Part shown: positions 28,102 to 46,293 of the stretch, in pieces | Layout: each line of letters opens with the position of its first letter | Numbering within the stretch: the first letter of the stretch is position 1 | Assembly: GCA_045648945.1 (NCBI GenBank) | Contig: JAZROX010000011.1 | Location: 4,679-68,678 of the forward strand | From: Candidatus Enterousia sp. | GTDB lineage: Bacteria > Pseudomonadota > Alphaproteobacteria > Rs-D84 | Length of the DNA: 64,000 bases | Direction: 5' to 3' | The notes under the pieces: generated by a model | Databases searched by the model: none | The model's input: the letters and a program-made list of their open reading frames with translations, nothing else | What the model was told of the DNA's origin: nothing | Translations under genes and position numbers: made by a program

Positions 28102-29079
28102 TTAGTTATTGGATGGCATATATATCATCGGGCCGGCGATGAAATTACCGGTGCCAGAATTTGTAAGAAATGTTCCCGACACCAAATCATACATTCCCAA
28201 CACACCATCACTGTCACGGCGGGCGGGAATCAGGTCCAATTTTCCCTCTACCCGAAAATAGTAAATTCGCATACTGCGTCCAGTTGAAGAAATTTCAAAG
28301 CCAGGATAATTTACGTCAAACAAATACGCATTTCTGGTTGGGGTATAAACTTCGTGAACTGTGCGTGCCCAACTTATATTTGGATACAATTGTGCGGTTT
28401 TATATGGATTTCCATACCAATTGATTATATATGGGGTTCCAATAACACATGGGGAACTCGCTGTATAATAACGCGGCACCAAATTAGTATTTGCGGTGGA
28501 ATATACCATAAATTCTAAAGGGTCCGCGCTAGGTTGTGAAAACGTAAATTTTGGGGACCGCCAATCGTTCCCATCGCTGGCCCCGAACCATTCACTTTCA
28601 ACGCTATTCAAATATACAAATTTTGCCGTTATATTTTCGGTGGACCCAATTGGCATCCCTAGGTCTATATATTGTTTTCCGGCACTTTCTAGGTACCTTA
28701 ATGCGGTATAACCACTTGGTAACTGGGCCGCGGCGACCACCCGCACCAATAAACATTCGTTGTTTGAATCGTATTGAATACATTCGAATTCTGTATCAAT
28801 AGCATTCTGAACCGCGGCGTTCATATTTTGGGCATCGACCAGGGCCGCCGTTTGATTTGCGTATTCGCCCGATGCAGTATAAATATCTTTCGTCCCGACG
28901 GTGCCGGCGGAACCGGTGTTTGTTAATACTTGTGCGGTGCCGGAATTTGCGGAAATTTTATCCTGTTTTTGTGCAACGGCGGTGTCAACAAAGGCCTTGC
29001 TGGTCGCGATATTTTCACCCGCCGCAAACGCGGAACACACGCATAATGCACAAATTATCGATATTAAAAATTTTCTCAT
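28102..29079 (-). CDS. secreted fibre/adhesin-like protein, family member B
   Basis: Same architecture as 8692-9666; close paralogue of 45316-46293; AAGGAGG RBS. Confidence 0.88.
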   Translation of the reverse strand: MRKFLISIICALCVCSAFAAGENIATSKAFVDTAVAQKQDKISANSGTAQVLTNTGSAGTVGTKDIYTASGEYANQTAALVDAQNMNAAVQNAIDTEFECIQYDSNNECLLVRVVAAAQLPSGYTALRYLESAGKQYIDLGMPIGSTENITAKFVYLNSVESEWFGASDGNDWRSPKFTFSQPSADPLEFMVYSTANTNLVPRYYTASSPCVIGTPYIINWYGNPYKTAQLYPNISWARTVHEVYTPTRNAYLFDVNYPGFEISSTGRSMRIYYFRVEGKLDLIPARRDSDGVLGMYDLVSGTFLTNSGTGNFIAGPMIYMPSNN

Positions 29080-29092
29080 ATTTTTCCTCCTT

Positions 29093-29147
29093 GGTCTACC
29101 CCGTCACACTTCGTGTGCCACCCCTTCACAATGTGAAGGGGACTTTT
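29093..29147 (-). repeat. REP-like double hairpin between leader terminator and RBS
   Basis: Identical to 33703-33757; near-identical inverted copy at 45248-45302. Confidence 0.85.
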
Positions 29148-29154
29148 GGGATTT

Positions 29155-29368
29155 AAAAACCGCCAGGAATCCTGACGGTCGGGGTGTTAGCTAATCATAC
29201 TATCAACGATTCCGATGACCTTTCTATATACGCCATCGGCACCCCGACCAATATATCGGGGGACAATATTGCGGTGCAAAAACACGAAAATCACACAGAT
29301 TACGATGCCTTGCACCGGATAGTATGGGCCAGCTACGACCCCGAACCGCGGGTTCCCACCCTGGGTTC
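29155..29368 (-). ncRNA. candidate structured leader RNA/attenuator (copy B)
   Basis: TTGCAT-N18-TAGCAT promoter; GGGA-tetraloop hairpin, covarying long-range stem, terminator accgtcagg-att-cctggcggt-tttt. Confidence 0.72.
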
Positions 29369-37729: not shown

Positions 37730-38009
37730 GATTTTCCCTTTGTCTAAGACGGATTTGCCGAGATAGTATACACGCTTTTTTTATTAATTCAACATATTTT
37801 GTGGTAATTATATGGCTACTCGACCCATTTTTGTAAAAGTATTGTATTTCTAGGTGTTTCAGAATATTATTATTTAACATTCAAATGTATTTATCAGATG
37901 AAAATGTGTTGAATGCTAGCAAAAAAATGAAAAATACCGATTTTTTGTGAAAAACGGTATTTTTTATTATTTTGGTGGCATAAACGCACCCAACGGTTCA
38001 AATAATCTA

Positions 38010-38381
38010 TTAAATTTCTCTTTGTGGTGTTCCAAAAGTAAATCCTGAATTAGTTTTTGTTTTTTTACCGAATGAAACACTTTTCAATTTGAACTGTTTT
38101 ATCATAGAATTAAAGAATTTCGCAATTTCTGCTGTATTTACTAATGTTGCGCCATGATTAGTGTGAACATATTCGCCGTTTGGGTCTTGAACTATCGCGT
38201 CATTACCAACTTCCAAACGCCACGTGTTTTCGGCGCCACTATGATAATATGGTGTAAAAACAGCCACAATATCTTTTCCAGAAAACAACTGCAAAACCTT
38301 TTCGTGGTCTTTGTTTTCTGCTACTTGGGTGGATGTATAATACACATCATCAAATCCAGGTATTTTATTTCCAAATTTCAT
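38010..38381 (-). CDS. hypothetical protein (transposon cargo)
   Basis: 123-aa ORF with GGAG RBS, downstream of 38399-38872. Confidence 0.65.
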   Translation of the reverse strand: MKFGNKIPGFDDVYYTSTQVAENKDHEKVLQLFSGKDIVAVFTPYYHSGAENTWRLEVGNDAIVQDPNGEYVHTNHGATLVNTAEIAKFFNSMIKQFKLKSVSFGKKTKTNSGFTFGTPQREI

Positions 38382-38398
38382 ATTTAAGCTCCGATTTT

Positions 38399-38872
38399 TT
38401 ATCTATTATCTCTCCATTTCGCTGCAATTTGTTCTGCTTGTTGAGTATAGTCCGGTCCTGTTTTTTTCCATTTACCTTTGATTCCAGCCGCAGTCGCCTT
38501 TGTAAATTCTTCGGTTTTCTGGATAGACTGCACTTTTTTAAAAGCATTCCACAAAAGTTTTTCGTCTTCCGACATGTCTTCTTCTTTTTTATCCCCATTA
38601 CTTACGTCTGAACGTGGATGCATATATAAAAGATTTGCTATCTTTTTTAAGACATCGCCATTTGAACAACCATTTTTAATAAAAGTTTCCATGGCTTTTT
38701 TATTACCACTAAAATATGCTGGTATGCATTCGTGGTAAAATTCACCCCATTCTGCTGTGTCAGCATTATTTTTAAATTGTTCTACGAATTCTGCAAAGAC
38801 ATCAAGTGGTATCTGACTATTTGCAAAAAGTTTACTTAACGCTTTAATATCTGTGTATGCATCACCTGGCAT
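38399..38872 (-). CDS. hypothetical protein (transposon cargo)
   Basis: 157-aa helical ORF with AAGGAG RBS. Confidence 0.7.
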   Translation of the reverse strand: MPGDAYTDIKALSKLFANSQIPLDVFAEFVEQFKNNADTAEWGEFYHECIPAYFSGNKKAMETFIKNGCSNGDVLKKIANLLYMHPRSDVSNGDKKEEDMSEDEKLLWNAFKKVQSIQKTEEFTKATAAGIKGKWKKTGPDYTQQAEQIAAKWRDNR

Positions 38873-39134
38873 AATAAAACTCCTTTGTTGGTTTTGACAT
38901 GATGATTATAATAAAACCAAGATTTAATTTGATACGGCTGTTAAACAACCTATAAAACAAGAAAACCGCGATTTTCGCGTTCTTTTAAAATCCGAAAGCA
39001 TCATAAAACGGTTGATTTTTTAGTTTGGTTTAATTTCAACACTAAAAATCAAGTTCAAAACCACGCGTATTGTGGTGGTGCACGATTTTTAATTCATTTC
39101 AATAAATACGAATGAACAACCAAAAGGATTTTTT

Positions 39135-39758
39135 ATGATTTATGCGTATTGTCGTGTGTCAACAACCCACCAAACCGAAGAAAACCAACGTTTTGTGATT
39201 GAAAAATTCGCGGACGAAAATAACATTAAAATTGACGTTTGGGTCAAAGAAACGATTTCAAGTGGCAAAAAACTATCGCAACGAAAACTAGGTAAATTGA
39301 TTCCAAAGTTAAAATCTGGGGATATACTCATTACAACCGAAATATCGCGTCTAGCACGTAGTTTAATGGAGTTAATGGGTATATTACAGACCTGTCTTGA
39401 AAAAGAATGTCAAATTTGGACTTTGAAAGAAAATTTTAGATTAGGAACAGACGTTCAATCAAAAGTTTTAGCGTTCGCTTTTGGTTTATCGGCTGAATTA
39501 TCAAAATCATTATTACAGGCGCGTGTTCGTGAAAGTTTGGCACGTTTAAAAGCAGACGGAAAGAAACTTGGACGACCATTTGGTTCAAAATCGCGTGAAT
39601 TAAAACTAACAAAACACAAAAAACGGCTGGAATGGATGTTAAAACGTGGATTCAGTAAGCCAAAGATAGCCAAATTATTAGGTGTTCATAAATGCACAAT
39701 CTATAATTATTTGAAAAAATCTGCCATTTCGGCAGATTCTGGTCATTCGATTTTGTAA
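39135..39758 (+). CDS. serine recombinase (resolvase/invertase family)
   Basis: YAYCRVST catalytic Ser, GDILITTEISRLARS, GKKLGRP and C-terminal HTH. Confidence 0.93.
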   Translation: MIYAYCRVSTTHQTEENQRFVIEKFADENNIKIDVWVKETISSGKKLSQRKLGKLIPKLKSGDILITTEISRLARSLMELMGILQTCLEKECQIWTLKENFRLGTDVQSKVLAFAFGLSAELSKSLLQARVRESLARLKADGKKLGRPFGSKSRELKLTKHKKRLEWMLKRGFSKPKIAKLLGVHKCTIYNYLKKSAISADSGHSIL

Positions 39759-39820
39759 AAAAACGCAAAAACCTAAGGACGTAAAATCATAAAAACCTTG
39801 AAATTCTACCAAAATAAACT

Positions 39821-40645
39821 ATGTTTGTTTATATGAATAACAAGGTAATAACAATGAATTTTACGTCACAATATTTAAGTTTTAATGATAAGATACCTGA
39901 ACACGACGATTTTTTGATTTTTCAAAAACAACCAGATTTCAGTTATAGCAGGACCAAAACATCTGCATACCATAATATACACACAGAATTGACCGAAGAT
40001 TATTTTTGGTTGTATTCCAATTATGGTAATAAAAATCCGCGTCCAAAACAGGTAATAAATACAACCAGCGGTGTATCACATGATAATTTAAGAACAGCCG
40101 AAGAAGTCGAACCTACCGACCAACTGTTCGTATTATATAGTTTTAATGATAAAACGATGTATATTTCAAACGTTAACAGTAAAGGTTTTGTGTCTAATTT
40201 ATTGATGGAAAAGATGGGTCTTGAAAGTATCAGTATAAAAAATATTTTTATGGACCGTGAACAATTTATTAACCAATTACAAGTATTAGACGAAATAAAA
40301 TTCACATCTGTGGAACGTAATTTGTTTTCTGGCGTTAACAGTATTGGTGGTGCACTTATGGACAATTATGGTATAGAAGAACCGGAAGTTTTTACAGTTT
40401 CCGCAAAATATAAGACACCAATATCAAAAAAAGTTAAAAATATGCTGGACTTATTGTCTGGACAGAAAAAAGAAGGCAACTTAAAAAAACTAATCATAGT
40501 TGGACGAGACGACCAAAATGTTGAACAAGTTTTCAATGAAGAAGCATTTACCCAAAAAGTTGTCATATCTATTTCGGAAAATGACGAAGGGTTATTCGAT
40601 CCAGAACAGGTAAAAAACAAATTATTAGAAAAAATAACCGAATAA
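39821..40645 (+). CDS. hypothetical soluble protein (transposon cargo)
   Basis: 274-aa ORF (start may be ATG 39854), closely followed by a TM gene. Confidence 0.75.
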   Translation: MFVYMNNKVITMNFTSQYLSFNDKIPEHDDFLIFQKQPDFSYSRTKTSAYHNIHTELTEDYFWLYSNYGNKNPRPKQVINTTSGVSHDNLRTAEEVEPTDQLFVLYSFNDKTMYISNVNSKGFVSNLLMEKMGLESISIKNIFMDREQFINQLQVLDEIKFTSVERNLFSGVNSIGGALMDNYGIEEPEVFTVSAKYKTPISKKVKNMLDLLSGQKKEGNLKKLIIVGRDDQNVEQVFNEEAFTQKVVISISENDEGLFDPEQVKNKLLEKITE

Positions 40646-40657
40646 AAGGTAAATAAC

Positions 40658-41131
40658 ATGCTATATAAAAAAGACAAATGGTATTTTTACAGTTTGTTTG
40701 TTGGGGCTGTATTGCTTGGTTCATTTTGTGAATTCAAACCAAAACCGGAACTTTATTCAGACCTTATAACATTTATATCAATTTTAATTGGTTTTCAAAT
40801 AACTTCGTTTTCTATGATATTTACATCGAACGTGGTTAAAAATCTTTACAACATCAAAGATATTGAAAACAAATCTATCACATTAAAACACAGGTTAAAA
40901 AATTATTATAAATTTACGTTCAATTTAGCATTGATATCAATTGTGGCTATATTTGCTTTAAGCATGTTTAATTTCAATCAAATTTCAACTTGGTGGGGAA
41001 ATATAAGTGTGTATTGGTTTAACAGATCTATCATATTTTCCATAATAGCATTGAATATATTTGCGAACTTTAAAACAATGAATTTTTTATATAAAATTTT
41101 CATCAAAGATAACGATAAACACGAACATTAA
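40658..41131 (+). CDS. hypothetical 4-TM membrane protein (transposon cargo)
   Basis: Four hydrophobic segments including LITFISILIGFQITSFSMIF. Confidence 0.75.
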   Translation: MLYKKDKWYFYSLFVGAVLLGSFCEFKPKPELYSDLITFISILIGFQITSFSMIFTSNVVKNLYNIKDIENKSITLKHRLKNYYKFTFNLALISIVAIFALSMFNFNQISTWWGNISVYWFNRSIIFSIIALNIFANFKTMNFLYKIFIKDNDKHEH

Positions 41132-41155
41132 ACTCAATAAAACTATATAATTTGA

Positions 41156-41175
41156 AATCCGCCAAATGGCGGATT
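41156..41175. terminator. bidirectional terminator
   Basis: aatccgcca-aa-tggcggatt between convergent cargo genes. Confidence 0.6.
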
Positions 41176-41176
41176 G

Positions 41177-41557
41177 TTAACTTTCAAATTGGGCTAATAA
41201 TTGTTCCAATTCATCGTGTTCCGTCACTGGTGGCAGATCTAATTCTTTGGTATAATCCAAAAAATGTGGTCTGTGTTTTGACCTGCCGTCTGAATAGACT
41301 ATGTTCGCCAGTTCATAATCGTTATGATTGGTTTCCACAAATTTCAGATTTGGAATATGCGCCAAATTGTCTCTATCAAATAAATACGGCCATTTTGCTT
41401 TAATTTGTGACAACGACTTGATTTTTGGGTTTTGTTTTTCCCAATCCATTTCTTCATCAACTTGGTCTTCAAATAATGGAACTGGTAAAACTTCTGGTTT
41501 GTCGCCAACAATCATAACCATCACAATACCGTTTGTTAATAATCTCATAGTTTTCAC
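41177..41557 (-). CDS. hypothetical protein (transposon cargo)
   Basis: 126-aa acidic ORF; start at GTG 41557 or ATG 41548 after AAAGG. Confidence 0.6.
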   Translation of the reverse strand: MKTMRLLTNGIVMVMIVGDKPEVLPVPLFEDQVDEEMDWEKQNPKIKSLSQIKAKWPYLFDRDNLAHIPNLKFVETNHNDYELANIVYSDGRSKHRPHFLDYTKELDLPPVTEHDELEQLLAQFES

Positions 41558-41803
41558 CTTTGGTTTTGTTATCTATATCCGGACATTCCGCTAAAAAATC
41601 GTTTTAGACAACAGTTTTTTCTTGGTTTTTATCTGCGAAAATCCGCGATTTTTTAATTTTTTTATATTGTCTTTCAATGGTATTTACGAATTTTTTTAAA
41701 AAATTGAAAAAACATTTTGTAGTCGCGTTCAAGATGATGAATACTATCAACAAAGGAAAGGAGAAAAATATGAAAAAAACATAAGAAACCGAAAGGATAA
41801 AAT

Positions 41804-43429
41804 ATGAAATTAGACTTTAAAAAAATTCTAAATAGAAAACAGCAAGTAATCCCTGGAACATGGGCAGATGTAAAACAAAAATATAATACTGAACAAAAAT
41901 GTGAAAAGTTATTTTTATCACATTTATGGCCTGATGGAATTGAATGTCCGAAATGTGGTTATTTCAATCAAATAACCAACAAAATACACACAGGAATTCA
42001 AAAACAAAGTGTTGAATTCAAGTGTGCAAAATGTCACAAGAAAATTATCAGACAAACCAACTGTGTTTTTACTGGGTCACCACACACTTTTCAGACGTGG
42101 TTAGAAGCGATTTATAGAGTTCCAATAAAAGAAAAATCCACTTCTTCCCAACAATTACAGGAAGAATTGGGAATTTATCAACCAAGCGCGTGGGAATTGA
42201 TTTTAAGAATTGCCCAACTTGCTAAACAACAAGATATAACGTTAAATGGGACGGTTGAAATTGACGAATGGTATGATAACAGCGACCCAAGATATAAACA
42301 CGATTATCAACAATCTATATACGGTAGCGACAAAGGTATTATTGGTGAATCTGTTCCGATTATGGGTGGTGTTCAAAGGGCAATTACAGATATAGACGAA
42401 AACGGTAAAAAAGTTGTGATACAACCTGCACAATATGTTTTTAAACAGTTAAAACTTCGTGGAGACCGTTCAGTTGCGTCACAACACATATCAGAGTTTA
42501 GAGACCAATATATACCAGACCATGAAAACGTGAATTTTTTGACATACGATGCAAAAATATACACGACAAAGGGGTTGCTCAAACACCATAAAGCCGTCAA
42601 ACACAATGTAAAAAACGATGAAACAGAAGAATCTGATAATAATCAACAAAATCAAACCAAACAAGAAAAAACGCCACATTGTGCAAAATACGTTGATGAG
42701 GACGGAAATCATACGAATAACGTGGAAGGATTGTTTTCCAGAGTTTCAAAATATAAAAAGGGAACTCATAATTTATTATCACCAAAATATGAACAAATGT
42801 ATTTAGATATGCAGATGTTTCGTGAAAATAACAGACACCTAACCACAGAAGAAAAAATTCACAAATATCTATCATATTTGCCAATGGTTCCACATGTAAA
42901 TATAGATGACCTTATTGGTGACGAACCAACAGGATTTTTAAAGAAAACAACACGATTTGCGTGTAAGGACCATCCAAATTTGATGAAAGAATTAAATGAT
43001 GTTCCAATTGAAAAAGTCGTTTACAGAAATGATTTTCTGAAAATGGTTCAAGATATAGGTATGGATTTGGCAGGTCCAAATGCTGAAAAAACATTGGAAA
43101 GATTGTATATGCGTCAAGCAATGAAACAAGTGTTGCCAGAATTCGTGGAATTAGCCAAAAATATGGATGAAGCCACACAGGCGGAATTTTATGAACATAT
43201 TTTGAATGAATTGACAGAAATACCTTGGGATGAAAGATATTGGTTTATAAATAACGATTTGAAAAACAGGTTAGATATTGGCGAAATCGTTCATTCTGAT
43301 AAAAATGTTCCTGGTGAACCAGAACAATTTAAACAACGAATGACGGCTAGAAAACAACGGGAAAACGCGAAAAAAAGACGTCAAGAAAAGAAAGAAAACG
43401 AAAAGAAAAAATCCGAAGAAAAATCCTAA
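41804..43429 (+). CDS. divergent IS1595-family transposase-like protein with C-terminal extension
   Basis: WPDGIECPKC..CAKC Zn ribbon, SSQQLQEELGIYQPSAW HTH, VEIDEWY, TNNVEG; second catalytic motif reads LTYD; ~190-aa extra C-terminal region. Confidence 0.85.
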   Translation: MKLDFKKILNRKQQVIPGTWADVKQKYNTEQKCEKLFLSHLWPDGIECPKCGYFNQITNKIHTGIQKQSVEFKCAKCHKKIIRQTNCVFTGSPHTFQTWLEAIYRVPIKEKSTSSQQLQEELGIYQPSAWELILRIAQLAKQQDITLNGTVEIDEWYDNSDPRYKHDYQQSIYGSDKGIIGESVPIMGGVQRAITDIDENGKKVVIQPAQYVFKQLKLRGDRSVASQHISEFRDQYIPDHENVNFLTYDAKIYTTKGLLKHHKAVKHNVKNDETEESDNNQQNQTKQEKTPHCAKYVDEDGNHTNNVEGLFSRVSKYKKGTHNLLSPKYEQMYLDMQMFRENNRHLTTEEKIHKYLSYLPMVPHVNIDDLIGDEPTGFLKKTTRFACKDHPNLMKELNDVPIEKVVYRNDFLKMVQDIGMDLAGPNAEKTLERLYMRQAMKQVLPEFVELAKNMDEATQAEFYEHILNELTEIPWDERYWFINNDLKNRLDIGEIVHSDKNVPGEPEQFKQRMTARKQRENAKKRRQEKKENEKKKSEEKS

Positions 43430-43494
43430 AAAATCGTTGTCTTCCAATAAAAAATAGCGGACCGTTATAGTGTAAAAACAAAAGGATTTATACT

Positions 43495-44484
43495 ATGGCG
43501 TTTCAAAGTATTCATAAGTTAATGCAAGAATACAACACAGAAGATAAATGTCGCGAATGGTTCGTTCATCATCGTTGGCCTAACGGTGTTGAATGTCCAT
43601 TCTGCGGTAATAAAGACGGTCAAAAAACGATTTGTCGTTTAACCAAAGGTGCTGAAAAAGGCTGTTTTCTGTGTCGTGCTTGCAAAAAGAAATTTTCAGT
43701 TCGGAATAATTCATTTATGGGTAAATCACGTATTCCATATTCTAAATGGTTAATGGCGATTTATTTCGTTATCAACCATAAACGCGGTATTTCGTCTTTA
43801 CAACTGGCGCGTAATATCGGTGTCACCCAATCAACAGCATGGTTTATGGCTCAACGTATATTCAATATCGTAAATTCAGATAATGCTGTTTTGAATGGTA
43901 TTGTTGAAATGGACGAAGTTTATATCGGTGGTGCTGAAAAAAACAAACGTCCAGACAGACGCGTCAATAATTCAAACAAGTATCTTAACGATAAAATGTC
44001 TGTTTTGGGTATGTTGGAACGTGGCGGAAAAGTTATTTTACGTCAATACGAAGGCAAACAATATAAATACATGGAACCAGTTATTGAACATCATATCGGT
44101 AAAAACGCGACAGTATATACTGACGAAAGTCCACTTTATAAAGGCGGAATAAATGGTCGTCAGCATAATTGCGTAAATCACAGTAAAGGTATTTATGGAA
44201 TCGGCAGTATCACAACGAACAGGATTGAGGGTATGTTTTCACAGTTAAAACGTATGATTTTGGGTATTCACGTGTTCGTGACACGTGGACACTTTAAACG
44301 TTATGCTGATATGTTCAGTTTCAGAATGGACACGCGTGAATTGACTGAATACGAACGTTTAGATTTGTTAATGACACAAGTCAACGGAACACGTATCAAA
44401 TTTGACGAAATATCGTGTCATGGTAATCCAGGAACGAAAAAATGGTTTCCACACTACGGAAGCAAAAGAAAAATTGTTTTATAA
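43495..44484 (+). CDS. IS1595-family transposase
   Basis: RWPNGVECPFC..CRAC, ISSLQLARNIGVTQSTAW, VEMDEVYIGG, VYTDE, TTNRIEG. Confidence 0.95.
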   Translation: MAFQSIHKLMQEYNTEDKCREWFVHHRWPNGVECPFCGNKDGQKTICRLTKGAEKGCFLCRACKKKFSVRNNSFMGKSRIPYSKWLMAIYFVINHKRGISSLQLARNIGVTQSTAWFMAQRIFNIVNSDNAVLNGIVEMDEVYIGGAEKNKRPDRRVNNSNKYLNDKMSVLGMLERGGKVILRQYEGKQYKYMEPVIEHHIGKNATVYTDESPLYKGGINGRQHNCVNHSKGIYGIGSITTNRIEGMFSQLKRMILGIHVFVTRGHFKRYADMFSFRMDTRELTEYERLDLLMTQVNGTRIKFDEISCHGNPGTKKWFPHYGSKRKIVL

Positions 44485-44499
44485 CCGAAAGGATTTAAA

Positions 44500-44658
44500 A
44501 TGGGAACAGCAGTTCAAATGGGTGATGAAATAGTCGTGTCAAATTCAATCGGAAGTGTGACACGAAAATTCAAAGGACGTTTAATCAGTTATATTAACGG
44601 AATCTTGACCTATGTGCCATTCAATGGCGGTTTATGTTCAATGTATGTTGGATTATAA
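44500..44658 (+). CDS. small hypothetical protein (52 aa)
   Basis: ATG after AAAGGATTT RBS (as for the element's other genes), MGTAVQMGDEIVV...YVGL, followed by a terminator-like hairpin. Confidence 0.4.
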   Translation: MGTAVQMGDEIVVSNSIGSVTRKFKGRLISYINGILTYVPFNGGLCSMYVGL

Positions 44659-45036
44659 AATCTGTGCGATAATATGCCGCCAAACTCATAAAAAGCACCA
44701 TTTTCTTACGAAAACTGGTGTTTTTTAATTCCTTTGCCAGCATGTGTGCAAATATTATAAAAACATTTTGTAGTTCAGATTTGATTATGATAAATTCGTA
44801 TGGGAATATTTTTTCAAAAATCATGTGATAACCATAAAAATGTTTTCTCGTAAATTGTTGAAAAAATATTTTTTTGATATTTAATAGAGTTTTTGCTTTG
44901 TTTGTTCAGTAAAAACAATATGTTATATGTGTTCAAACACAATATTTAAACTACAACGAGTCGAGTAGCCATATAATTACCTATTTTGTGGTTTTCCCCT
45001 TGACCCCAAAAAAGGATTTTTGATAGAATAAGAATT

Positions 45037-45239
45037 GAACCAGGGTGGGAGCCCGCGGTTCGGGGCTGTGACAAGCCTGTGCCAGTTCGACGCAGGAAGG
45101 TTTTCCGTGTGCCGTGAAATATTCCCCGATATTTCGTCGGGGTGCCGATGGTTATAATGCGCTGTCAAAAGGCCTATCGGAATCACTTAACTGGTATGAT
45201 TTGTCAACGCCCCGACCGTCAGGATTCCTGGCGGTTTTT
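45037..45239 (+). ncRNA. candidate structured leader RNA/attenuator (copy C)
   Basis: TTGACC-N18-TAGAAT promoter; GGGT-GGGA-GCCC hairpin, tgacaag..tgccagtt / aactggta..tttgtca stem, terminator accgtcaggattcctggcggttttt. Confidence 0.72.
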
Positions 45240-45247
45240 AAAACCCC

Positions 45248-45302
45248 AAAAGTCCCCTTCACATTGTGAAGGGGTGGCACACGAAGTGTGGCGGGGTAGA
45301 CC
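45248..45302 (+). repeat. REP-like double hairpin between leader terminator and RBS
   Basis: Inverted near-identical copy of 29093-29147. Confidence 0.85.
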
Positions 45303-45315
45303 AAGGAGGAAAAAT

Positions 45316-46293
45316 ATGAGAAAATTTTTAATATTGGTAATCTGTGCAATTTTTGCCCTGCCCGCGTTCGCGGCGGGTGAAAATGTCGCGACCAGCAAGG
45401 CCTTTGTTGACACCGCCGTTGCACAAAAACAGGATAAAATTTCCGCAAATTCCGGCACGGCCCAGGTTTTAACCAACACCGGTTCCGCCGGCACCGTCGG
45501 AACAAAAGATGTCTATGATTCGTCCGCCGCATATGCAAATCAAACAACGGCCCTGGTCGACGCACAAAATATGAACGCCGCCGTGCAGGCCGCCATCGAC
45601 ACAGAATTCGAATGTATTCAATACGATTCAAACAATGAATGTTTATTGGTGCGGGTGGTCGCCCCGGCCCAATTGCCAAGTGGTTACACCGCATTAAGAT
45701 ATATCGAAAGCACCGGAACACAGTATATCGACCTTGGGATGCCAATTGGGTCCACCGAAAATATAACGGCGAAATTTGTATATTTGAATAGCGTTGGAAG
45801 TGGATGGTTCGGGGCCGCCGACGGGACCGATTGGCGGTCACCAAGATTCACGTTTTCATACCCTAGCGGCTACCCGTCAACATTCATGATATATTCCACC
45901 GCAAATACAAATTTAAACGCAATGTATTATTACGCTGGATCCCCATGTGCTATTGGAACACCATATATAATCAATTGGTATGGAAATCCATATAAAACCG
46001 CACAATTGTATCCAAATATAAGTTGGGAGGTTACATATCACGAAGTTTATACCCCAACCAGAAATGCGTATTTGTTTTACGTAAATTATCCTGGTTTTGA
46101 AATTTCTGCAACTACACGCAGTATGCGAATTTATTATTTTCGGGTAGAGGGAAAATTGGACCTGATTCCGGCGCGGCGTGATAGTGATGGCGAATTGGGG
46201 ATGTATGATTTGGTGTCGGGAACATTCCTTACAAATTCTGGCACCGGTAATTTCATCGCCGGCCCGATGATATATATGCCATCCGGAAATTAA
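45316..46293 (+). CDS. secreted fibre/adhesin-like protein, family member C
   Basis: 325 aa, close paralogue of 28102-29079 in the opposite orientation; AAGGAGG RBS. Confidence 0.88.
   Translation: MRKFLILVICAIFALPAFAAGENVATSKAFVDTAVAQKQDKISANSGTAQVLTNTGSAGTVGTKDVYDSSAAYANQTTALVDAQNMNAAVQAAIDTEFECIQYDSNNECLLVRVVAPAQLPSGYTALRYIESTGTQYIDLGMPIGSTENITAKFVYLNSVGSGWFGAADGTDWRSPRFTFSYPSGYPSTFMIYSTANTNLNAMYYYAGSPCAIGTPYIINWYGNPYKTAQLYPNISWEVTYHEVYTPTRNAYLFYVNYPGFEISATTRSMRIYYFRVEGKLDLIPARRDSDGELGMYDLVSGTFLTNSGTGNFIAGPMIYMPSGN

Follow-up and report, generated by a model that had tools for sequence, protein, structure and literature searches.

An IS1595-type unit transposon with two paralogous transposases and a serine recombinase in Candidatus Enterousia-like gut Alphaproteobacteria

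Introduction

Insertion sequences (IS) of the IS1595 family duplicate 8 bp of target DNA and end in terminal inverted repeats (IRs). IS1595 elements that also carry passenger genes have already been named transporter IS (tIS; 10.1101/2021.05.26.445724), a term whose source paper, as cited in PMC3129680, is Siguier, Gagnevin & Chandler 2009 Res Microbiol. Here we analyze an element of this kind at positions 37803-44981 of a 64,000-nt stretch of DNA from Candidatus Enterousia sp. (assembly GCA_045648945.1, contig JAZROX010000011.1, positions 4,679 to 68,678 of the forward strand), hereafter called the window. As tIS are described in these sources, the element shares with them the terminal IRs, the 8-bp duplication, a zinc-ribbon plus aspartate-aspartate-glutamate (DDE) transposase of IS1595 type, and passengers inside the IRs. 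It is set apart from that description by two paralogous transposases, one near-invariant and one hypervariable, by a conserved serine recombinase and a small open reading frame (ORF) in its core, and by placement 10 bp upstream of -35 boxes. A sequence-only reading of the window had called the element an IS1595-family unit transposon of an unusual class. The family assignment stands, whereas the class is not new, because passenger-carrying IS1595 elements already bear the name tIS; the core architecture alone appears to be new.

Insertion near promoters is known from Mutator-like DDE transposons. TnGBS, ISLre2 and ISKra4 insert upstream of sigma-A/sigma-70 promoters, 15-17 bp from the -35 box, and promoter-targeting Mutator-like elements with near-perfect IRs insert in both orientations, sparing genes (PMC3942029). 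The likeness to our element lies in the fixed short distance upstream of -35, the use of both orientations and the sparing of genes. The difference lies in the enzyme and the distance (p-MULT transposase and 15-17 bp there, IS1595-type transposase and 10 bp here) and in the gene set, which comprises one transposase and no serine recombinase there and two transposases plus a recombinase here. The element acts like these transposons but is no member of the group, since Pfam and NCBIfam assign it to IS1595 and not to p-MULT. Mobile insertion cassettes (MICs) and transposable elements of the miniature inverted-repeat type (MITEs) are mobilised in trans (PMC3129680, PMC3281130). Six units of 0.8-2.4 kb described below, which have the family IRs, 8-bp duplications and one to three passengers but no transposase, resemble MICs and MITEs as these sources outline them; they differ in deriving from an IS1595-type element and in that two of them keep a recombinase gene, apparently via internal deletion. 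The element also resembles the Tn3 family in uniting a DDE transposase and a small serine recombinase in one IR-bounded, passenger-carrying unit. Tn3-family IRs are ~38 bp long and the target duplication is 5 bp. Here, the transposases are of IS1595 type (329 and 541 aa), the IRs are 22 bp, the duplication is 8 bp, and the recombinase lies nearer to invertases.

We consider it probable that the element belongs, as an intact copy, to a small family of IS1595 unit transposons with cargo that works, as a whole, by the mechanism proposed in the Discussion.

Results

A bounded unit between two intact promoters

The element is delimited by a perfect 22-bp IR, GGTAATTATATGGCTACTCGAC, with its left copy (IRL) on the plus strand at 37803-37824 and its right copy (IRR) on the minus strand at 44960-44981, and a direct 8-bp duplication, TATTTTGT, abuts both tips (37795-37802 and 44982-44989). 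Both features are exactly where the sequence-only reading had located them. Beyond the perfect repeat, similarity between the ends extends to 47 nt with 83% complementarity, reaching 37849 on the left and 44935 on the right. With up to three mismatches, the 22-bp end matches exactly twice in the window (0 matches in 100 shuffles) and exactly twice in the whole assembly (1.25 Mb, 61 contigs); therefore no internal end copy exists and the element, a unit of 7,179 bp, is single-copy in the source genome. This agrees with the earlier view that it is one unit rather than a composite of two IS. The GC content is 0.28-0.37 within the element versus 0.45-0.52 in the flanks. These observations confirm a bounded unit transposon with the IS1595 traits of an 8-bp duplication and terminal IRs, and its cargo ORFs lie inside the IRs of an IS-like structure, as in tIS. 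The tips, GGTAATTAT, appear to resemble the end consensus of the ISNwi1 group.

The element sits between two promoters and breaks neither, as had been claimed; a consensus scan places both intact. On the left is the tig promoter (TTGAAT-16-TATACT, minus strand, 37765-37792), whose -35 hexamer begins 10 nt beyond the IRL tip, and on the right a TG-extended promoter (TTGACC-18-TAGAAT, plus strand, 45000-45029) that reads rightward into a flanking gene with a multicopy leader. In the close relatives L049 and L028, the region upstream of tig is kept up to ...CAACATATTTTG, that is, up to the duplicated 8-mer, and diverges beyond. An exact empty site was not found, and the window's right flank adjoins tig in 0 of 80 tig loci of relatives.

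Four full elements share a core

Three further complete elements with the same ends (0-3 mismatches) lie at different sites in other species of the genus: L095 (3306-13103, 9,798 bp, duplication AAAAAGAC), L096 (3535-13110, 9,576 bp, duplication CAAAAAAT) and L110 (4976-15864, 10,889 bp, duplication CATTTTTT). The comparisons of full elements below rest on these three and the window element. All four have the gene order recombinase, ORF126/129 (minus strand), long transposase (TnpL) and short transposase (TnpS), and the recombinase is retained in 4/4; the core ORF ranges from 123 to 129 aa across elements. Conservation covers ~180 bp at the left end and the region from the recombinase spacer through the right end, and the segment between these two parts is a variable cargo bay.

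In the window element, TnpL (541 aa, plus strand, 41804-43429) is followed by TnpS (329 aa, plus strand, 43495-44484). Pfam models PF12762 and PF12760 match TnpS with 105.8 and 31.9 bits and TnpL with 40.0 and 28.4 bits, all over the cut-offs, so that both proteins combine the N-terminal zinc ribbon (PF12760) and the ISXO2-like DDE domain (PF12762) by which IS1595 transposases are recognised. NF033547 scores TnpS at 159.9 bits (cut-off 75) and TnpL at 64.4 bits, under the cut-off. Both transposases match IS1595 models only (Pfam, NCBIfam), which places the element outside the Tn3 family. The gene content read from the sequence alone was borne out: there are a canonical IS1595 transposase, a divergent second one, a serine recombinase and five ORFs without a Pfam family at E<=0.01.

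TnpL is rare. Among 5.8 billion proteins, only 16 full-length relatives were found (44-84% identity); a profile of these relatives led to two loci in the species-genome collection, and a search of the genus genomes added two more genomes. Of the 328 genomes searched in the order, five contain TnpL (G000, G066, G067, G128 and G192), all of this genus, and in each of the five the 329-aa TnpS gene lies directly downstream. The transposases are therefore co-conserved; the sequence-only reading had said that it would fail if they were not, and that failure did not occur. No TnpL locus was found in viral contigs, and metagenome contigs yielded one short contig, L097 (333-2735 of 2.7 kb), with IRL, an ORF123 homologue, ORF126 and TnpL and with no recombinase. 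The TnpL of L097 is interrupted at residue ~329 by a second IRL copy, which represents either a nested self-insertion or a misassembly.

That the two same-family transposase genes stand side by side might suggest a chance composite, in which a TnpL element inserted independently beside a simple TnpS IS and the outer ends match by chance. We regard this as very improbable: no internal end copies appear even with three mismatches, the same pair occurs in the same order in all five TnpL genomes, the four elements occupy four sites with an individual 8-bp duplication around the whole unit at each, and TnpL belongs to a sister lineage of TnpS (see below). As far as the searched genomes reach, the family is restricted to Candidatus Enterousia-like gut Alphaproteobacteria.

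Insertions lie at a fixed distance from -35 boxes

For target choice, we read the flanks outward from 38 distinct ends at offsets 1-50. TTG occupies outward offset 11-13 in 20 of the 38 ends (background 2.67% per position; binomial 7e-22), and no other offset from 1 to 50 exceeds five ends. Among the 20 TTG-bearing ends, TANNNT follows after a spacer of 15-19 nt in 17 (background 11%). TTG at this offset puts the tip of the element 10 bp upstream of a -35 hexamer, the interval being the 8-bp duplication plus 2 nt. With the flanks read by eye, the signal appears on exactly one side in 10/10 two-ended elements, on the left in the window, L110, L143, L144 and L146 and on the right in L095, L096 and L145, and this one-sidedness rules out a palindromic target consensus. 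The targeted promoter, which in the window is that of tig, points away from the element and is intact. The 8-bp duplication falls within an A/T-rich stretch upstream of the -35, and insertions occur in either orientation. Judged from these flanks, insertions have one tip exactly 10 bp upstream of a sigma-70-type -35 box. No report of fixed-distance promoter targeting in the IS1595 family was found in open-access literature text.

A realistic alternative, in our view slightly short of an even chance, is that the transposase recognises a short asymmetric motif (A/T-rich 8 bp, N, C, then a TTGA-like sequence) rather than a promoter or RNA polymerase. This would suit the C at position 10 in 15 of the 20 TTG-bearing ends (counted by eye), the A/T-richness of the duplicated 8-mers and the three ends of the 20 that have no simple TANNNT -10 box. 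However, a reader of the -35 alone would not need the -10-like hexamer present in the other 17 ends, although TTGAC, where it occurs in AT-rich spacers, mostly belongs to promoters anyway, and the sequence after TTG varies (ACA, AAT, CTT, ATT, CAT, TTT).

As a separate observation, an end variant, GGTGATTATATGGCTACTCGCC, lies at one and the same promoter-proximal site (AATATGTC AC TTGAAA) in L128, L131 and L132 (genomes G177, G199 and G205). The shared site reflects either an old inherited insertion or a hotspot.

A near-invariant and a hypervariable transposase

Between the four elements, TnpS is 96-99% identical at the amino acid level with dN/dS (ratio of nonsynonymous to synonymous substitution rates) of 0.02-0.08, the recombinase is 87-99% identical and ORF126 82-99% identical. 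TnpL is 54-55% identical among the window, L095 and L096 (dN/dS 0.29-0.33), and the TnpL of these three is 27-29% identical to that of L110 (dN/dS 0.43-0.79). Contigs X2 and X5, from two gut metagenome runs, align to both flanks of TnpL and not to its body.

The catalytic residues occupy columns D154, D248 and E308 of the alignment. TnpS has D, D and E at these columns, as does the distant TnpL of L110. At column 248, the window TnpL has Y where 13/13 TnpL homologues and TnpS have D, and the catalytic activity of this copy is probably lost, to go by the substitution. Relative to TnpS, TnpL contains an insertion of ~45 aa in the catalytic domain and a C-terminal extension of ~150-190 aa, which was modelled as five helices (residues 402-540; mean predicted local distance difference test score (pLDDT) 61). 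A Foldseek search of the PDB with this TnpL model (pLDDT 61) returned nothing at E<=0.001, the weak top rows being DDE transposases. Prediction of a complex between TnpL and TnpS gave scores of 0.00 and 0.00, which count neither for nor against binding. The two-subunit transposase suggested earlier is not supported and keeps a conjectural standing, TnpL being hypervariable and its window copy carrying D248Y.

In a quick maximum-likelihood tree of 59 rows, 12 TnpL sequences form one clade (Shimodaira-Hasegawa-like approximate likelihood ratio test (SH-aLRT) 99). Its sister group comprises TnpS and the closest relative of TnpS, P0034 (95), and a joint branch (97) sets both groups apart from 43 other IS1595 representatives, which were every third of the best 150 TnpS relatives of 280-345 aa only. 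The sister position fits an old tandem duplication that may have been followed by rapid divergence of TnpL. P0034 had no locus in the genome contigs. The IS1595 relatives of TnpS number 17,787 representatives at E<=0.001, the nearest annotated ones being Bacteroides and Phocaeicola plasmid IS1595 transposases at <=37.5% identity, and solo short IS1595 genes in genomes G056, G063, G026, G280 and G325 bear other ends.

These data bear on a simpler explanation, possible but in our judgement doubtful, in which TnpS is the sole transposase of an ordinary single-enzyme tIS, TnpL is dispensable, drifting or purely regulatory, and the recombinase is a mere passenger. The D248Y substitution speaks for it, as do the divergence of TnpL (27-55% identity) between elements whose TnpS is 96-99% identical, the target geometry common to transposase-less cassettes and all TnpL variants, the abundance of single-transposase IS1595 relatives and the variant L097 without recombinase. 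On the other hand, the TnpL ORF is intact in 4/4 full elements and in the 16 database relatives, with DDE retained in 13/13 homologues as well as L110; the three closer copies give a dN/dS of ~0.3; no TnpL turned up without TnpS; and its gene keeps one place, with an invariant 60-bp block on one side and TnpS on the other.

Two side observations concern the neighbourhood of TnpL. The non-coding block of ~60 bp (41558-41620) is identical in all four full elements despite adjoining a TnpL of just 27-55% identity. The A-rich 3' end of TnpL (43340-43433) is read in different frames among family members; the DNA encoding the tail ...NPKKSLSSNKK is conserved, yet the window TnpL does not have it in frame.

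The serine recombinase resembles DNA invertases

The recombinase (207 aa, plus strand, 39135-39758) matches PF00239 with 101.3 bits. Its best curated family is NF009949, the master DNA invertase Mpi of Bacteroides, at 260.9 bits, which is under the cut-off of 272 (residues 1-199 against 203 model positions), and phrog_125 'DNA invertase' matches at 3.2e-42. Among solved structures, the nearest by sequence is a DNA invertase, 4m6f (2e-6), followed at 5e-5 to 9e-4 by the resolvases of Tn3 and gamma-delta. Homologues of 71-74% amino acid identity occur in other genomes of the genus outside any IR-bounded element, and at both of the loci examined (L149, 5923-8516; L150, 5456-8029) the paralogue is divergent from a YadA-anchor adhesin gene, a layout typical of phase-variation invertases.

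Upstream of the gene, the 262-bp spacer (38873-39134) contains blocks conserved in 4/4 full elements and a terminator-like hairpin (38967-38979), and its inverted cores are only 11-13 nt long. Inverted AAACCAA/TTGGTTT cores lie ~100 nt apart upstream of the recombinase gene in both the window and L150. Repeats of the CGCGATTTTCGCG type (CGCG) were considered as recombination sites and rejected, being terminator-like hairpins. The earlier reading of the protein as a resolvase with a likely res site in 38873-39134 is not supported; the recombinase is nearest to Mpi invertases, and the spacer does have conserved blocks.

The recombinase could instead be a DNA invertase that flips an internal segment, for example a promoter lying between cargo bay and core, and thereby switches the expression of cargo or transposase. 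We think this unlikely. The Mpi, phrog_125 and 4m6f matches, the adhesin-linked paralogues and the AAACCAA/TTGGTTT cores are what an invertase would predict, whereas the Mpi score is under the family cut-off, the inverted repeats, of 11-13 nt, are both short and weak, and no opposite-strand joint was seen in the spacer in contigs of four runs, where contigs can hide minor forms. Resolution of cointegrates is weakly favoured over an invertase or passenger role, because the recombinase gene occupies a constant position within the conserved core.

Cassettes that share the ends but lack a transposase

With <=3 mismatches, 22 of the 257 genus genomes contain the end sequence, and 17 of these 22 gave no TnpL hit. 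Six units with both ends, 823-2,377 bp long, contain from one to three passengers but lack a transposase gene. Perfect 8-bp duplications flank five of them (L145 is the exception), which brings the count to 9/10 for all two-ended elements. Among the passengers are an ankyrin-repeat protein and, together, an AAA_5 ATPase and a DUF7192 protein. The recombinase gene is retained in two of the six, L144 (2150-2771) and L145 (1712-2333), where the 3' end of the gene has been joined to the final ~30 bp on the right side such that the IR encodes the final codons. Each of these fusions looks like the product of an internal deletion. Across 185,579 species (one genome each), the end pattern gave 27 matches, 23 of them in Enterousia-like metagenome-assembled genomes (MAGs). 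L154, L158, L159 and L173 were rejected as family members; they have no element sequence beyond the 22-mer and fit the 1-48 chance matches expected.

Cargo genes and surroundings

In the window element, two cargo genes of unassigned function precede the recombinase spacer on the minus strand: ORF123 (38010-38381), with homologues beside the IRL in L097 and L145, and ORF157a (38399-38872), found in the window element alone among the elements compared. Downstream of the recombinase on the plus strand, ORF274 (39821-40645) and its partner ORF157b (40658-41131), a membrane protein with at least two hydrophobic segments, make up an optional internal cassette that the window element and L096 possess and L095 and L110 lack. 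The conserved core gene ORF126 (minus strand, 41177-41548; 123 aa counted from ATG) is divergent from TnpL. No Pfam, PHROG, NCBIfam or PADLOC family was found for ORF123, ORF157a, ORF274, ORF157b or ORF126 at E<=0.01, and PADLOC matched none of the nine ORFs of the window element. The predicted structure of ORF126 (pLDDT 48.9) is too low in confidence for use, its ESM Atlas leads are kinase-like only and all below 0.9, and PDB sequence searches with TnpL and ORF126 gave no meaningful match.

ORF274 and ORF157b showed language-model likeness to RexA-like, DUF4747 and DUF6731 clusters (0.94-0.97; low recognition of 1908), a weak RexA-like lead in the case of ORF274. Neither matched a Pfam family even at E<=10 or any PADLOC system, and this does not place them among RexAB-like pairs; a two-gene abortive-infection cargo is possible. 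The cargo of L096 includes a pair of type II restriction-modification genes (REase_II at 2.3e-102 and MTase_II at 2.4e-103) together with a gene for a Panacea-domain protein. In L095 and L110, the cargo comprises an FtsK/HerA-like ATPase, a protein whose transpeptidase-domain match is far under any NCBIfam cut-off, and unassigned genes.

Relatives of the host tig gene are 75-90% identical in many MAGs (Candidatus Enterousia or uncultured Alphaproteobacteria) derived from ruminant, horse and other guts, and the host itself is a gut alphaproteobacterial MAG of the Candidatus Enterousia-like type. The whole element had no match in plasmid and phage DNA. Parts of the stretch are held by 20 sequencing runs from 13 studies (top share 0.38), all as assembled contigs. 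The 5' leader and start of the right-flank gene (45118-45500) belong to a multicopy family: a second copy, 87% identical, lies at ~28895-29270 of the same contig, and 19 of 256 other genomes of the genus have several copies each. In the metagenome contigs X5, a single opposite-strand joint, 37912/44743, was seen and is left uninterpreted.

Discussion

In the mechanism we propose for this family of cargo-carrying IS1595 unit transposons, TnpS would bind the IRs and carry out cleavage and strand transfer, a role given to it because TnpS and the IRs are the near-invariant parts, and it would mobilise the transposase-less cassettes in trans. TnpL would be an old tandem duplicate of the TnpS lineage, retained as an auxiliary subunit or regulator. 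Promoter placement would be owed to the conserved machinery or to RNA polymerase bound at the promoter, with the variable part of TnpL having no share in it. The recombinase would most likely resolve cointegrates or dimers arising from replicative transposition, which is the weakest step of the proposal.

Several points weigh against this reading. First, at the level of the insertions, the cassette L145 has no matching duplication, the exact empty site is lacking, and transposition, cointegrates, excision or inversion were not seen, assembled contigs being the only material. Second, three of the 20 promoter-side ends (L128, L131 and L132) represent one orthologous site, and a CTTGA-like DNA motif that is read directly, rather than promoter function, could underlie the TTG signal. 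Third, the dN/dS of TnpL (0.29-0.79) also fits relaxed selection, the higher values resting on saturated dS; with D248Y, a two-subunit catalytic enzyme could not work in the window copy unless the adjacent D249 substitutes; and the TnpL tree is the product of a quick search, has long TnpL branches and was rooted at the midpoint. Fourth, by its matches the recombinase is nearest to invertases, its paralogues lie by adhesin genes, and its gene is missing in L097.

A more elaborate arrangement can also be drawn, in which a heteromeric TnpS-TnpL machine docks on sigma-70 promoters: TnpS would cut and join at the IRs, the TnpL extension would contact a host-specific factor such as promoter-bound RNA polymerase, replicative insertion would follow 10 bp upstream of the -35, the recombinase would resolve the cointegrates, and the whole would make up a new class. 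We hold this to be quite improbable.

Returning to the cargo-carrying IS1595 family as proposed above, what is apparently new is the four-gene core with its frozen and fast-evolving transposase paralogues, the serine recombinase and the 10-bp promoter placement; the promoter targeting is the strongest new result. A second, unrelated transposase family with a promoter habit would make promoter-finding by DDE transposases testable. The pairing of a frozen with a fast-evolving paralogue, together with a recombinase, is an unusual IS core that blurs the line between IS and unit transposons beyond the known tIS. For its hosts, this family moves restriction-modification, toxin-antitoxin-like and other accessory genes among uncultured gut Alphaproteobacteria with genomes of ~1 Mb, without breaking genes.

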